Positions 5,540-9,197 of a DNA stretch of 54,740 bases are shown in pieces. The stretch comes from Candidatus Onthocola stercorigallinarum (GTDB lineage: Bacteria; Bacillota_I; Bacilli_A; RF39; UBA660). Position numbers and translations under genes: made by a program. The first letter of the stretch is position 1; each line of letters opens with the position of its first letter. The stretch lies in contig DVMD01000095.1 of the NCBI GenBank assembly GCA_018715145.1, forward strand, positions 1 to 54,740. The letters run 5' to 3'. The notes beneath the pieces are model-generated. The model made no database searches, was not told the DNA's origin, and saw nothing but the letters and a program-made list of their open reading frames with translations.

Positions 5540-6168
5540 CTACCTTTCTCATTTATCATATCTTCGAGTTGTTCTTCAATAAAGAATTTTAAACGAAGTA
5601 TTTCTTGCTTTCCGTGTTCATCTATTGAGTATTTGTTTTTAACAAATTGTACTGCTAAAAATCCAATAGGTTCATTGCTTTTATTATTTAAAACAATATC
5701 ATAAAATGAATTAATGTTTTGACTCTTTTTTAATTGATATGTACTAGGCATAATTTCCTTTATTGAATCTAATTCTTTCACTTCCAAATATCCATCGTTT
5801 AACAATTGAGAAATAAATTTCGATAAACAACTTAATGGAATAGATTGTAATTGATTTTGTTTTGGAGCAATGCTATTTCTAATAACTTCATAAGAGCAAC
5901 TCGTTTTTAAAGCGCTTCTTCCATTTGCATAGTGACCACCATTATGAAAGTCATAAACCTGTACACGATCAGCATTTAAATATTCTTTTAATGAATCCAT
6001 TTTTTCGATTATAATATTATCATAAATTGCTTGTTTCCTAATTTTATTAGGTAATGTTTCAACCTCTTTTCTTGTATTTTTATAAACCTTTATAACAGCT
6101 ACCGTAACAGCTCCTATTGCGGTAATAAGGAGCGCTAGTCCAGTTATAAAATTCGCTATATTTTCTAT
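5536..6168 (-). CDS. Membrane-anchored GAF-like domain protein; probable non-AUG (ATA) start
   Basis: The track ORF 5536-6000 has a GAF-like pattern (ADRVQVYDFHNGG..., IPLS, EPIGFLAVQF). The frame stays open 56 codons further upstream and encodes a clear TM helix, FITGLALLITAIGAVTVAVI. An AGGAGG at 6177-6182 lies 8 nt upstream of an ATA codon at 6168. There is no in-frame ATG, GTG or TTG in this extension. Confidence 0.45.
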   Translation of the reverse strand: MENIANFITGLALLITAIGAVTVAVIKVYKNTRKEVETLPNKIRKQAIYDNIIIEKMDSLKEYLNADRVQVYDFHNGGHYANGRSALKTSCSYEVIRNSIAPKQNQLQSIPLSCLSKFISQLLNDGYLEVKELDSIKEIMPSTYQLKKSQNINSFYDIVLNNKSNEPIGFLAVQFVKNKYSIDEHGKQEILRLKFFIEEQLEDMINEKGR

Positions 6169-6183
6169 TTTGATTACCTCCTA

Positions 6184-6624
6184 TTATTTGAAACCGTAGA
6201 CTCTAATAACACTAAAGCAATCGTAGAAACCACCAGTTGCATCAACCAAATTAAATTGAAAACTATTACTAATAGTAATTTGATTGCTTGACAATACCAA
6301 TTTTGCTACTGCCATCCAATAAGCATTACTAGCGGTATTTACCATAGCACTTATTGAATAATCTTGCCCTTCTATATAAGGTACTAAAACACTAGATGGT
6401 GTATTTCCCCACCATCCTCCAACAATAAGAAGATATTTATAGTTTGCAAAATTATCCCCACTTGGCGTTGGTATATTTGTAGTAGAACTGCCACTATAAA
6501 GCAACTTACCTCGTAAATTTTGTAATACTTGATTTAATTTAGTTTCATTTTCTACTATTCCAGTTGAATCTATATAAGTTTCATTTTTGAATTTTATTGA
6601 TTTAGACATATTATTTTTTTGCAA
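6184..6624 (-). CDS. Distal tail/receptor-binding candidate, paralogue of 6630-7052
   Basis: 146 aa. The N-terminus SIKFKNETYIDSTGIV parallels KAVKFKNNYYIDSDSV of the neighbouring gene. It lies at the end of the tail-fibre module. Confidence 0.4.
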   Translation of the reverse strand: MQKNNMSKSIKFKNETYIDSTGIVENETKLNQVLQNLRGKLLYSGSSTTNIPTPSGDNFANYKYLLIVGGWWGNTPSSVLVPYIEGQDYSISAMVNTASNAYWMAVAKLVLSSNQITISNSFQFNLVDATGGFYDCFSVIRVYGFK

Positions 6625-6629
6625 TTATT

Positions 6630-7052
6630 TTAAAAAGCAATTCCATAAATTCTATGCGGAACTAATTTGTTAGGATATGTTGAAAAAGCAGAATATCCAT
6701 TAATACCGTAAGAATAACAATTTGTAAAATGAATATCATTGCCAGCAAACCAAACGCTTCTTCTAAAAAGCCTATCCGCATTATCTGCCCAGTCTTCAGC
6801 AAATAAATACCCTGTTCCTGCAGTATTGGCTACCATCAAAATACATACATTTTCTATTGTTTTAATAATTACAAATTGGTATCCATCACAATTTACTCCT
6901 ATATTACCTTCTTCGAATGAAGAATAATTCAGTTCTTTAATTAGTTGTATTCTCACCCGACTATTTAAAATATTTTTTAAACTTTCGCGATTATGGATTA
7001 CGGAATCGCTATCAATATAATAATTATTTTTAAATTTAACTGCTTTAGCCAT
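6630..7052 (-). CDS. Distal tail/receptor-binding candidate, paralogue of 6184-6624
   Basis: 140 aa. It shares the N-terminal KFKN.YIDS motif with the downstream gene. Confidence 0.4.
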   Translation of the reverse strand: MAKAVKFKNNYYIDSDSVIHNRESLKNILNSRVRIQLIKELNYSSFEEGNIGVNCDGYQFVIIKTIENVCILMVANTAGTGYLFAEDWADNADRLFRRSVWFAGNDIHFTNCYSYGINGYSAFSTYPNKLVPHRIYGIAF

Positions 7053-7067: not shown

Positions 7068-7547
7068 TTATGCTGTTCTTAACCATACATAACAAGTTAT
7101 AAAAGGTTGTAAATTGTTATGAGGTCGATTTCCACCAGAATTTTGTACTCCCCAACCTGTAAATTCTCCAGTAGTAGGATTATTAGCATCTTTAACCGGG
7201 TATCTTTGTCCAGAATAATAATCAATACCATAACCTGCTCTAAGTCCGCCGGCTCCAGCATTGGCTGCAATATTAGGGATATGATTATGGCTTGGCATTT
7301 CATTGACATTCAATGTATGTTTCTTTTCTCCACCAGTTTTTTTTACAGCGTTAAATTCACTTTGAGATGTATCAACACACACTATTGTTCTGCCAGGTCC
7401 AAACAACGACCAAGTTCCATAGCCTAATCTTATTTTAGGATTTTCTGAATTGGTTGTTAAATATAAATCTCCAACAGCATAATACGGGATTGGATAAAAT
7501 GGTTCATTTAGTATCTTAAGATTACCACCACGCCCCATAATATCCAC
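7068..7547 (-). CDS. Phage tail-collar domain protein
   Basis: 159 aa. The motif LNVNEMPSHNH and the overall Gly-rich pattern match the tail-collar (MdpB-like) family. The RBS is GAGGTGG. Confidence 0.65.
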   Translation of the reverse strand: MDIMGRGGNLKILNEPFYPIPYYAVGDLYLTTNSENPKIRLGYGTWSLFGPGRTIVCVDTSQSEFNAVKKTGGEKKHTLNVNEMPSHNHIPNIAANAGAGGLRAGYGIDYYSGQRYPVKDANNPTTGEFTGWGVQNSGGNRPHNNLQPFITCYVWLRTA

Positions 7548-7556
7548 CTCGTATGT

Positions 7557-7742
7557 TTAAACACATACACCCCCTATCGTAAGGGTTTGGAGAGCAATTA
7601 AACCAATGATTGCCCTCCTTTCGCATATTTTTTTGAACGCGCAAGTATGTTCGTTTCGTTTCGTTTCGTTTCGTTTCGTTTCGTTTAAGGATAAAACAAA
7701 TCGAAACATCGTGTCAATACTTTTCTTAATTTTTTTCAACAT
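7557..7742 (-). CDS. Small ORF containing a pentanucleotide repeat (NETKRNETKRNE)
   Basis: 61 aa. A strong RBS (GGAGGAATAAAAATG) follows immediately after the stop of the upstream tail gene. The C-terminal half overlaps GC-rich hairpins, so coding status is uncertain. Confidence 0.4.
   Translation of the reverse strand: MLKKIKKSIDTMFRFVLSLNETKRNETKRNEHTCAFKKICERRAIIGLIALQTLTIGGVCV
7651..7686. repeat. Tandem pentanucleotide repeat (TCGTT/CGTTT) x7
   Basis: Read directly: tcgtt tcgtt tcgtt tcgtt tcgtt tcgtt tcgtt t. On the coding strand this is (AAACG)7. Confidence 0.95.
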
Positions 7743-7754
7743 TTTTATTCCTCC

Positions 7755-9197
7755 TTACCATTCGTCAATTATTTCGTAATCTAATATTGGGTTTCCGCTA
7801 GGCAACAAAACTACATCTTTGAATATTACAAAGTTTGGTTGACCTTTTGGTCTTGAATCCGAAGATACTACATTCATCAACTTATCAGTTGCCGTAAATT
7901 CAAATTCGTATATTTTTTGATAATCCCAAGTACCATCATCGGAAATAGGATTTATTAGTTCAACAGATAAACTGTATTTGTTTTCAGTTTCAGAGATAGT
8001 TGGAGTAAGTGTTGTCGCACCATTTGTCCATTCTCCATTTCTTTCCCTAACTCTCCATGATAGTGATAAAGTATTTGAAACGGTATCACTGAAATTTCCT
8101 TTAAAGTAATTACCACTAATATTAACAAACATATCATCAGCGATTTGTGTTGATCTTTTAGTTGTAGCTGAAACAGTTAAATATGTATATGGTATTCTTT
8201 TGAAATATCCACTTTGTGAGCTACTATTTGACTGAAAGCTTTCTGTAGCAGAATATCCTCTACTATCAACAACCGTAAAACTAAAAGCATCATATATATC
8301 AAGTTTTTGCATAATTGTAGTAGCATCGGGATTATGGCTATAAGTTCCAGTGCTAGAACTTATATATAATTGGGATTTTGTGGCACTATTTTTAACTGTA
8401 GAACTTATATTAAACATCGGTTCAGAAAAGTAATCCACTAATACCGGATTTTGTGCAGTTGAGCCAGTTAATTCTACTGTAGTATCGTTATTATCATAGA
8501 AGCTCACATTGATACTTGGTTTACAATCATTATCGTTACACTTAGCGGTAAATGAACATGAACTAGTGCCTATTAATGTACCTCCGCTATATGTTTGACA
8601 AGTTATTGTTCCTTGCCCAGATTTTGAGTTTGGAATTTGTGCATAAAAACTTGTAGGTAACGCCCAACTATAGCTTGTCCCAACTCCCGTTGCTATTTGA
8701 CCACTTAAAATTCCAAAAGAATATGAAAGTGTATGTGTAAACGAGTCAGATGCTTTATTTATTGATATTAGTAAATTACTACCAATTGTTCCTTCTCCTG
8801 CAGTTACACCAGAAGCTCTTGCTATTCGTGATAATTCAGCTTGACCAGTTTGTTCACTCATTATCGTTGTAGTAATTTGACCTCTAACTGAAATATTAAT
8901 TGTTTTAGTACCATCGCTATTATGTGGGACTTTAACTGTTCCAGAAACTAACAATGTATTTGAATTTAATTTTAAAGGTCTATCATTAGAATTTTGTTGA
9001 TAAAATTCTGTTCCATTGATTTTAATATAAAATCTATGTTGATAATCCGTTGTTGTGTAATTGTTAGTTCTCCATCCTCGAAGTTCGGCATATACCATAG
9101 AATAATTTTCGGCGGTATTAACTTCTGTTTCTCGCCAATTCACTTGCCCAACAATATATTGGTTACTTGTTGTTACTTCAAAATATCCATTTTTCAT
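7755..9197 (-). CDS. Tail/host-specificity structural protein (DUF859-like N-terminus, tentative)
   Basis: 480 aa, Ser/Thr/Asn-rich and beta-type in composition. The N-terminus (VGQVNWRETEVNTAENYSMVYAELRGWRTNNY) resembles the DUF859 phage family. It lies within the tail-fibre cluster. Confidence 0.45.
   Translation of the reverse strand: MKNGYFEVTTSNQYIVGQVNWRETEVNTAENYSMVYAELRGWRTNNYTTTDYQHRFYIKINGTEFYQQNSNDRPLKLNSNTLLVSGTVKVPHNSDGTKTINISVRGQITTTIMSEQTGQAELSRIARASGVTAGEGTIGSNLLISINKASDSFTHTLSYSFGILSGQIATGVGTSYSWALPTSFYAQIPNSKSGQGTITCQTYSGGTLIGTSSCSFTAKCNDNDCKPSINVSFYDNNDTTVELTGSTAQNPVLVDYFSEPMFNISSTVKNSATKSQLYISSSTGTYSHNPDATTIMQKLDIYDAFSFTVVDSRGYSATESFQSNSSSQSGYFKRIPYTYLTVSATTKRSTQIADDMFVNISGNYFKGNFSDTVSNTLSLSWRVRERNGEWTNGATTLTPTISETENKYSLSVELINPISDDGTWDYQKIYEFEFTATDKLMNVVSSDSRPKGQPNFVIFKDVVLLPSGNPILDYEIIDEW

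Follow-up and report, generated by a model that had tools for sequence, protein, structure and literature searches.

Known routes by which phages diversify their host recognition are invertible segments, diversity-generating retroelements and, among Campylobacter phages, polyG tracts in tail genes. In bacteria, the (CTCTT)n tract of Neisseria opa and the (CAAT)n tract of Haemophilus influenzae lic1 are non-triplet repeats near the 5′ end of an open reading frame (ORF), and lic1 shows three expression levels, one per frame. Here we analyse a stretch of 54,740 nucleotides (nt) from Candidatus Onthocola stercorigallinarum (contig DVMD01000095.1, positions 1 to 54,740; hereafter the window), in which seven tandem AAACG units lie within a short leader ORF between two phage tail genes. 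As far as sequence can test, the locus reads as slipped-strand phase variation that would act on the distal tail genes of a temperate phage by way of a leader with three alternative stops.

Repeats within leaders have been described in Streptococcus gallolyticus, where (GCAGA)n in the leader peptide gene of pil1 and pil3 changes where the leader stops with respect to a terminator hairpin (Danne et al., 2014; PMC3894217). Translation through the pil1 stem-loop raises transcription of the genes behind it, which was experimentally proven in a study that includes '3 STOPs' and ATG* leader mutants (PMC3894217). Among phages, the Campylobacter phages of the Fletchervirus group carry hypermutable polyG tracts in genes for receptor-binding proteins (Sorensen et al., 2021, Cell Rep 35:109214, as cited in PMC12823448). 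Homopolymer contingency loci have also been proposed to serve bet-hedging in coliphages T2 and T4, in a study that covered only homopolymers of at least 6 bp and found them under-represented in tail-fibre genes (Gomez, Barrick and Waters, bioRxiv 10.1101/2025.10.21.683753). The repeats of H. influenzae have been reviewed (PMC2651432). A full-text search of the literature returned no multi-nucleotide repeat in a leader ORF before phage tail genes and no published description of such a locus.

Results

A non-triplet repeat in a leader ORF between two tail genes

The spacer under study runs on the minus strand from the gene for a 480-amino-acid (aa) tail protein (DUF859 / phrog_372; 7755..9197) to the gene for a tail protein with a Gp10_C domain (7068..7538). 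It comprises GGAGGAATAAAAATG and what follows it, then (AAACG)7 with a partial AAC, three hairpins and finally GAGGTGGATATTATG. An original prediction, made from the sequence without database searches, had placed seven perfect copies of a 5-nt unit between two tail genes, and both statements hold. Tandem Repeats Finder reports 7650-7686 (period 5, 7.4 copies, 100% matches) with the highest short-period score of the window; on the minus strand (AAACG)7 occupies 7652-7686, and the plus-strand (CGTTT)n reaches 7650 via a partial unit.

We scanned the whole assembly (1,269,978 bases in 106 contigs, 27.2% GC, 83% complete) for simple repeats with regular expressions. The tract is far beyond chance, since it is the longest simple repeat with a 4-9-nt unit in 1.27 Mb and the runner-up pentamer has four units. 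Beyond it, the scan returned just a handful of further simple repeats. The remaining notable ones, (TAA)9 at C23:2555-2581 and (ACA)7 at C44:4241-4261, have triplet units only.

In the window, the tract forms codons 19-31 of a 61-codon leader ORF (7557..7742, minus strand; frame A), about 19 codons of which precede it. This ORF had been described as bearing a very good ribosome-binding site immediately after the stop of the 480-aa gene. Indeed, GGAGGAATAAAAATG follows the TAA at 7757-7755, and a Shine-Dalgarno (SD) sequence GGAGG stands 8 nt before the ATG (GGAGGAATAAAA-ATG; SD and spacer at 7743..7754, minus strand), an arrangement conserved in all relatives of the window type and of a second, CAAA type. 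Every leader type opens directly behind the DUF859 stop with GGAGG, 6-8 nt and ATG, and enters the tract; the leader of relative L165 has GGGAGG instead and an ATGA stop/start overlap with the DUF859 gene. Because the TAA adjoins the leader SD, leader translation is probably coupled to termination on the DUF859 message. The N-termini of the leaders differ by type (MLKKIKKSID..., MKEKIQNVCEK... and MKKNKNIF...). In L173, at about 985-995, the DUF859 stop TAA is changed to GAA, and the tail gene extends a few codons into the leader SD region.

The tract varies in length between otherwise identical phages

The same locus was recovered by exact-protein look-up from many independent gut-metagenome assemblies. 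The cluster of Gp10_C proteins at 90% identity has 34 member sequences, the 15 listed ones of which occur on more than 130 contigs. The tract is spanned in 27 contigs, with 3-10 units of AAACG or, in sister lineages, 7-17 units of CAAA or 9 of AACG. The window and contigs L144, L145 and L146 carry n = 7, 4, 10 and 7 units, respectively, and show no substitution in about 1.1 kb around the tract. L144 and the window can be aligned over 6,471 nt without a mismatch, their sole difference being a 15-nt gap that corresponds to 4 versus 7 units. A second clone, represented by L153, L154 and L156 from three samples, has n = 6, 5 and 4 with no substitution in about 1,145 alignment columns. More diverged relatives also carry perfect units, with n = 3 in L155, 8 in L151 (82% identical) and 4 in L152 (88% identical), and the tract is perfect and uninterrupted in all relatives, from 3 to 17 units. 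Along the alignment, nucleotide diversity has its maximum at the tract and its minimum in the 90 nt just upstream (0-0.02, versus 0.05-0.07 in neighbouring coding sequence).

Units are added to and removed from the tract far faster than substitutions build up in its flanks, and the tract is almost certainly hypermutable. The original prediction had turned on variation in repeat count among related phages, with an invariant count speaking against a switch; counts clearly differ, in some cases between contigs whose flanks carry no substitution at all.

The unit itself differs between lineages. At the same site, L165 has (AACG)9 and L158 at least 7.5 units of AACG, and (CAAA)n is found in L159-L175 with n = 7, 9, 9, 9, 9, 9, 10, 10, 10, 12, 12, 14, 14, 15 and 17. 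None of the three unit lengths is a multiple of three. Judging from these lineages, the site retains a repeat while its unit changes.

Several assemblies end inside the tract. Logan contigs (k=31) break after 28-30 nt of it (L147, L167, L168, L176 and L177), as is expected for long tracts; L148 (k87), L178 (k141) and L157 (Logan) end within short stretches of it, which is compatible with, though no proof of, mixed lengths within a sample. Positions 4001-4130 of L152 match the window from the 3′ end of DUF859 to the tract and diverge sharply after it, with the contig ending in hairpin 1; the tract may mark a recombination junction. Phages of the AAACG and CAAA types co-occur within single gut samples (L153 with L164 in ERZ24773313; L156 with L170 in ERZ28614516).

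Three reading frames end at three conserved positions

That gain or loss of one unit would shift the frame of the leader had been pointed out beforehand, and modelling of n = 1-12 gives just this: each one-unit change puts the leader in another frame, and three outcomes cycle with n. Positions below are relative to the Gp10_C start, all on the minus strand. In frame A, the leader ends at -21, i.e. 18 nt before the Gp10_C ATG, with a TAA (7559-7557) that lies in the hairpin 3 loop. Frame B terminates much earlier (-62), with a TAA (7600-7598) on the edge of the hairpin 1 loop. Frame C, adopted with n = 3, 6 or 9, runs past the SD and ATG of the tail gene to a TAA (7522..7524) 14 nt inside its ORF. 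Stops at -21/-24, -62/-65 and +14 are common to the window type, L151 (82% identical) and the CAAA and AACG types.

Each of the three frames is represented among the assembly consensus sequences. Gene callers in other assemblies report leader products of 39-86 aa in all three frames, and the 27 tract-spanning contigs comprise 12 in frame A, 9 in B and 6 in C. There is thus no frame preference, which suggests that the C-terminus of the leader peptide is not under purifying selection. Selection for frame A had been considered when the first four clonal contigs gave n = 4, 7, 7 and 10, and was dropped with the wider sample.

An open linker and structured RNA separate the tract from the tail gene

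Between the tract and hairpin 1 lies a 29-nt linker (7623..7651, minus strand) without TAA, TAG or TGA in any frame. The same is true of all seven linker variants, which include at least four quite different versions before the motif GAAAGGAGG. By mononucleotide shuffling, the chance of a stop-free linker is p = 0.03 in the window and 0.003-0.05 in the six other variants, values that are neither independent nor multipliable because the variants share the core GTYCAAAAATT. Every frame of this stretch is kept open.

The three minus-strand hairpins that had been proposed downstream of the tract are all predicted by RNAfold. The motif GAAAGGAGG (7622-7614), a 9-nt SD without a gene of its own, runs into hairpin 1, the two together covering 7589..7622. 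Hairpin 1 itself (GGAGGGCAAT, loop CATTGGTTTA, ATTGCTCTCC; 7618-7589) has a predicted energy of -14.3 kcal/mol. Hairpin 2 (ACCCTTA-cga-TAGGGGGT, then GTATGTGTTT; 7569..7586, about -48 to -31) was flagged as terminator-like and reaches -7.1 kcal/mol, or -10.0 kcal/mol in the version with a GAAA tetraloop found in relatives. Hairpin 3 (GTATGT-gtttaa-ACATAC; 7551..7568, -30 to -13) has -6.7 kcal/mol. The fold of the window has a z-score of -2.7 and that of L159 one of -5.0.

Comparison of seven distinct and readily alignable variants of the 3′ spacer argues that these structures are maintained. Hairpin 1, its loop and the preceding GAAAGGAGG are invariant, and the 3-nt joint behind them is variable (AAA, GCA, GTG, GAG, GGG or GAA). 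L152 has another stem in the place of hairpin 1 (GGTGCAGTTA/TAATTGCACC), likewise with stops in the loop. The top of hairpin 2 alternates between TTA-cga-TAG and TTG-gaaa-CGG/TGG. In hairpin 3, a U-A pair is changed to C-G on both sides in L151 and L165, with the compensating base lying beyond the leader stop codon. Overall, 98.8% of paired alignment cells can pair, compared with 39-53% when the partners are slid by 1-3 columns. Changes in the leader peptide across the hairpins are radical (Cys to Arg, Thr-Ile to Gly-Asn). Because pairing is kept while such amino-acid changes accrue, the structure rather than the peptide appears to be conserved.

Two further pairings were considered and rejected. 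A long-range helix between leader codons 8-11 and the Gp10_C SD and ATG (RNAfold) is broken by a U-to-C change in L151 that has no compensation, and masking of the Gp10_C SD by the 3′ arm of hairpin 1 (CUCUCC) would comprise at most four pairs in a check by eye. Other stretches are predicted to pair with the tract itself. Upstream of it in the window lies GTTTCGATTTGTTTT (7693..7707, minus strand), an imperfect complement of the repeat unit with a weak predicted pairing to the first tract units (sixth fold, -11.8 kcal/mol). In L159, ATGTTTGT stands on either side of (CAAA)n (about 1800-1812 and 1895-1905), is complementary to the unit and is likewise predicted to pair with the tract. Such stretches could promote slippage or provide alternative RNA pairings.

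The layout is duplicated with another repeat unit

CAAA-type phages have a second leader cassette, in the 184-nt gap between a 164-aa gene and the next tail gene (L159:2985-3168, and also in L160-L178). Its leader, MIQKIKKALD..., resembles the window leader MLKKIKKSID.... The repeat is (AT)n, with n = 5, 8, 9, 10, 11 or 12 by contig. It is followed by a linker that is stop-free in every frame (p = 0.005, shuffling), by a hairpin GAAAGGAGGGCAAC...GTTGCTTTCC with TAA in its loop, and by further hairpins. Its frame-specific stops fall at -77, at -21 within the loop of GCAAAAT-attta-ATTTTGC, and at +5; those at -77 and -21, at least, are again placed in hairpin loops. From its sequence, the second cassette is a modular duplication of the same layout. 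The window has one cassette only, its other gap of 183 nt (6001-6183) holding neither a tract nor GAAAGGAGG.

Distant Gp10_C homologues lack the cassette

Searches for more distant relatives returned the tail protein without the spacer. The 2.7-kb region had no blastn match in a phage collection, and among 61 related genomes searched with DNA and 56 genomes of the genus searched with protein, only Gp10_C homologues of at most 46% identity were found, none with the spacer. Gp10_C as a query against IMG/VR and the JGI metagenome set gave homologues of at most 54% identity, again none with the spacer, and DUF859 as a query against viral contigs gave no related locus. In IMG/VR and the JGI metagenomes, most Gp10_C homologues without the cassette are separated from the gene before them by 4-31 nt, which is the usual layout with tight coupling. 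The exact pattern of hairpin 1 had 0 matches in the collections of viral contigs and genome contigs. Covariance models of Rfam gave no match overlapping 7539-7754, even at E up to 10, and Pfam and PHROG gave no family match for the spacer or the leader ORF.

A promoter-like site and an orphan SD flank the tract

Within the leader ORF, TTGACA-18-TATCCT (7688..7717, minus strand) is the best promoter-like site in 3.5 kb, and the tract begins 1 nt after it. Leader ORFs of the CAAA and AACG types also contain a near-consensus promoter-like site, 4 nt before the tract. That of L159 (1821-1849) is of the sigma-70 type, TTGACA-17-TGcGATAAT, matches 11/12 positions plus TG and is the best site in 4.5 kb of L159. 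Its spacer holds a perfect palindrome, GCATTC-GTAA-GAATGC.

The 9-mer GAAAGGAGG behind the tract may resemble in sequence the STAB-SD stabiliser of Bacillus thuringiensis cry3A. In RNAfold predictions its GGAGG is base-paired within hairpin 1, whereas the SD of a STAB-SD stabiliser is free to bind the 30S subunit. GAAAGGAGG is a full complement of the 16S 3′ end CCUCCUUUC (PMC10783764, Table 1), and no start codon follows at SD distance. The STAB-SD mRNA stabiliser element is cited in PMC12970973.

The genes behind Gp10_C resemble an exchangeable tail set

The Gp10_C gene is the first behind the spacer. The original prediction had its start at GTG 7547; the start is most likely ATG 7538 instead, which gives the 156-aa protein called in every public contig. 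The ATG (7538-7536) stands 5 nt downstream of an SD GAGGTGG (7550-7544; together 7536..7550, minus strand). In this phage, the Gp10_C protein stands alone with 156 aa. Elsewhere the domain is found at the C-terminal end of larger tail or tail-fibre proteins, in profiles of 266-1150 positions and ORFs of 300-700 aa. Neither the Gp10_C gene nor the DUF859 gene has a repeat tract inside, and no homopolymeric G tract occurs in the tail protein coding sequence.

Two small paralogous distal-tail genes of 140 and 146 aa (6184..7052, minus strand) follow Gp10_C after gaps of 15 and 5 nt and are probable co-regulated cargo. The genes in this position are mosaic: 140/146 aa in the window, and 164/151 or 164/159-161/148/141 aa in other lineages (L149, L153-L156, L159-L178). 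Against this variation behind Gp10_C, its own 5′ end and the spacer are conserved. Because the two chained genes are the part that differs between lineages, the cargo looks like an exchangeable distal-tail set.

The spacer had also been called conspicuously richer in GC than its surroundings. There is a mild enrichment, 0.39-0.41 as against 0.31-0.35 nearby, but 'conspicuously' overstates it, since values inside the Gp10_C gene reach 0.42.

Discussion

A three-state switch is the favoured interpretation

We propose, with a probability of roughly 0.55, that the tract is a slipped-strand, contingency-type repeat in a translated leader, and that it acts as a three-state switch setting the coupling of leader ribosomes to, or the de-attenuation of, Gp10_C and the two genes behind it. 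Termination on DUF859 would feed ribosomes onto the leader start. In frame B, they would stop early, hairpins 2-3 would stay folded and coupling to Gp10_C would be lost, giving a low or off state; if hairpin 2 is a weak terminator, transcription would stop too. In frames A and C, ribosomes would melt hairpins 1-3 and arrive at the Gp10_C start, giving an on state, perhaps of two strengths. Translation through the hairpins would bring back the close coupling that cassette-free relatives show, and would prevent termination if hairpin 2 terminates. With gaps of 15 and 5 nt linking the two small tail genes to Gp10_C, the state would spread to them. The outcome would be phage lineages that differ randomly in the amount of a distal-tail, probably receptor-binding, protein. 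The suggestion that the repeat could modulate the distal tail genes through translational coupling or RNA structure fits the conserved frame-specific stops, the stop-free linker and the paralogous (AT)n cassette.

Several points weigh against the three-state switch. The frame tally of 12/9/6 fits a switch and equally fits neutrality, and the linker variants share a core. Covariation has a thin basis of seven sequences with a single two-sided change. Followed by a GUAUGUGUUU tail, hairpin 2 passes a loose terminator scan in the window and in CAAA types, yet at -7 to -10 kcal/mol and with an interrupted U tract it is a weak terminator candidate. Gating may be partial because Gp10_C has a good SD of its own that is not clearly sequestered. 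Transcripts from the promoter-like site would lack the leader start, since this site lies downstream of the leader ATG, and the model leaves it unexplained, as it does the invariant orphan SD of hairpin 1. Which frame represents the on state is a guess.

The tract could instead be a neutral microsatellite, hypermutable and with a length of no selected effect, the leader being a mere coupling relay or untranslated. We consider this unlikely. It would agree with the presence of all three frames as assembly consensus at similar frequency (12, 9, 6) and with the separate SD of Gp10_C. On this account, however, decay by point mutation is expected, yet perfect tracts persist in lineages diverged by 12-18% (L151, L152); nor would neutrality lead one to expect three different non-triplet units at one site, a linker that is stop-free in all frames in every variant and in the second cassette, stops at the same structural positions, or a host genome otherwise nearly free of such repeats. 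An artefact of assembly, with tract lengths reflecting short-read errors at tandem repeats, is scarcely credible. Logan contigs (k=31) do break in the tract after 28-30 nt, and some assemblers could misjudge the count in tracts longer than about 55 nt, but the final k of the assemblers that yielded spanning contigs (k87, k141 MEGAHIT, SPAdes) exceeds the length of most tracts (15-50 nt). Whichever assembler was used, the lengths vary in the same way; independent samples repeatedly share one length (n = 7 in four cases, CAAA n = 9 in five), and the record name of L145 looks to us like that of a long-read assembly.

Repeats that lie close to promoters are known from Moraxella uspA2, with (AGAT)n, and Haemophilus hmw, with 7-bp repeats. 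By analogy, TTGACA and its -10 element could form an internal promoter and the tract the start of a 5′ untranslated region, whose length would tune mRNA stability or translation gradually and independently of frame. Both loci have their best promoter-like match here, with 11/12 and an extended -10 in L159; the tract begins 1-4 nt after the -10 element, and the orphan perfect SD GAAAGGAGG follows it. Even so, this alternative seems improbable to us: it gives no account of a conserved SD and ATG upstream of the promoter, of non-triplet units, of a linker open in three frames or of stops in loops, the -10 element of the window is poor (TATCCT), and the GGAGG is paired in hairpin 1, unlike that of a free stabiliser SD. 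Somewhat less probable still is that the target is the leader product itself, for example a small membrane or tail-associated peptide with three C-termini or a variable hydrophilic (NETKR)n linker. The frame A product of 56-66 aa, with its basic N-terminus and hydrophobic tail, would suit such a role, as would the fact that the clonal relatives of the window all have n = 4, 7 or 10 and are in frame. Against it, frames B and C are common, each leader type has a different N-terminus, searches gave neither a Pfam or PHROG match nor a homologue outside the clade, and the radical C-terminal changes preserve the hairpins, with the compensating base outside the ORF.

A proposed modular cassette and its implications

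The layout consists of a leader ORF with an SD, a non-triplet repeat, a linker open in three frames, an orphan-SD hairpin with a loop stop, more hairpins and the start of a tail gene. We put forward, more tentatively than the switch itself, that temperate gut phages carry this 'three-stop leader' as a modular, duplicable cassette, and that several of them before successive distal-tail genes would form a mutational switchboard that needs neither invertases nor retroelements to randomise the composition of receptor-binding tails across lysogen lineages.

If this is true, a repeat-phased leader is a cheap, protein-free, heritable and reversible device that tunes or switches whole sets of tail-tip genes while leaving the proteins intact. 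Because it is visible in metagenomes as a length polymorphism, it would offer a testable marker for bet-hedging by gut phages. There are practical consequences as well: assemblies break at such tracts, gene callers miss the leader or call it at varying lengths, and one reference genome conceals which state the switch is in.

Comparison with known systems

With the polyG loci of Fletchervirus phages, as cited in PMC12823448, the locus shares a simple repeat in a phage that would give heritable, reversible diversity in host recognition. Those tracts are homopolymers within the coding sequence of structural genes of lytic phages, whereas the present repeat, with units of 4-5 nt, belongs to a temperate phage, occupies a leader ORF of its own and does not alter the sequence of the tail protein. 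The tracts of T2 and T4 are likewise slippage-prone, but neither a leader ORF nor multi-nucleotide units are described for them (10.1101/2025.10.21.683753). In opa and lic1, the repeat lies in the regulated gene itself; here it lies in an upstream relay ORF whose peptide is seemingly unimportant.

The differences from pil1 are of several kinds. The pil1 leader follows a promoter, whereas this leader follows the structural gene DUF859 in a phage late operon, and the sole promoter-like site is internal to the leader ORF, past its ATG. The present locus has three hairpins and three designated stops, one of them within the downstream gene, its terminator character is weak and the downstream gene has its own SD. 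Phage tail genes make up its cargo, and the cassette recurs as a duplicate with other repeat units. The locus would therefore work like pil1 but is no demonstrated member of that class, since the upstream promoter of pil1 has no counterpart here and hairpin 2 is a weak terminator candidate. What the two share is a pentanucleotide repeat in a short leader ORF with its own ribosome-binding site (here GGAGG, 8 nt and ATG) and alternative frames that stop before as opposed to within or beyond a stem-loop (here -62 versus -21 and +14). By this likeness, pil1 and pil3 appear to be the closest proven analogue of the phage leader.

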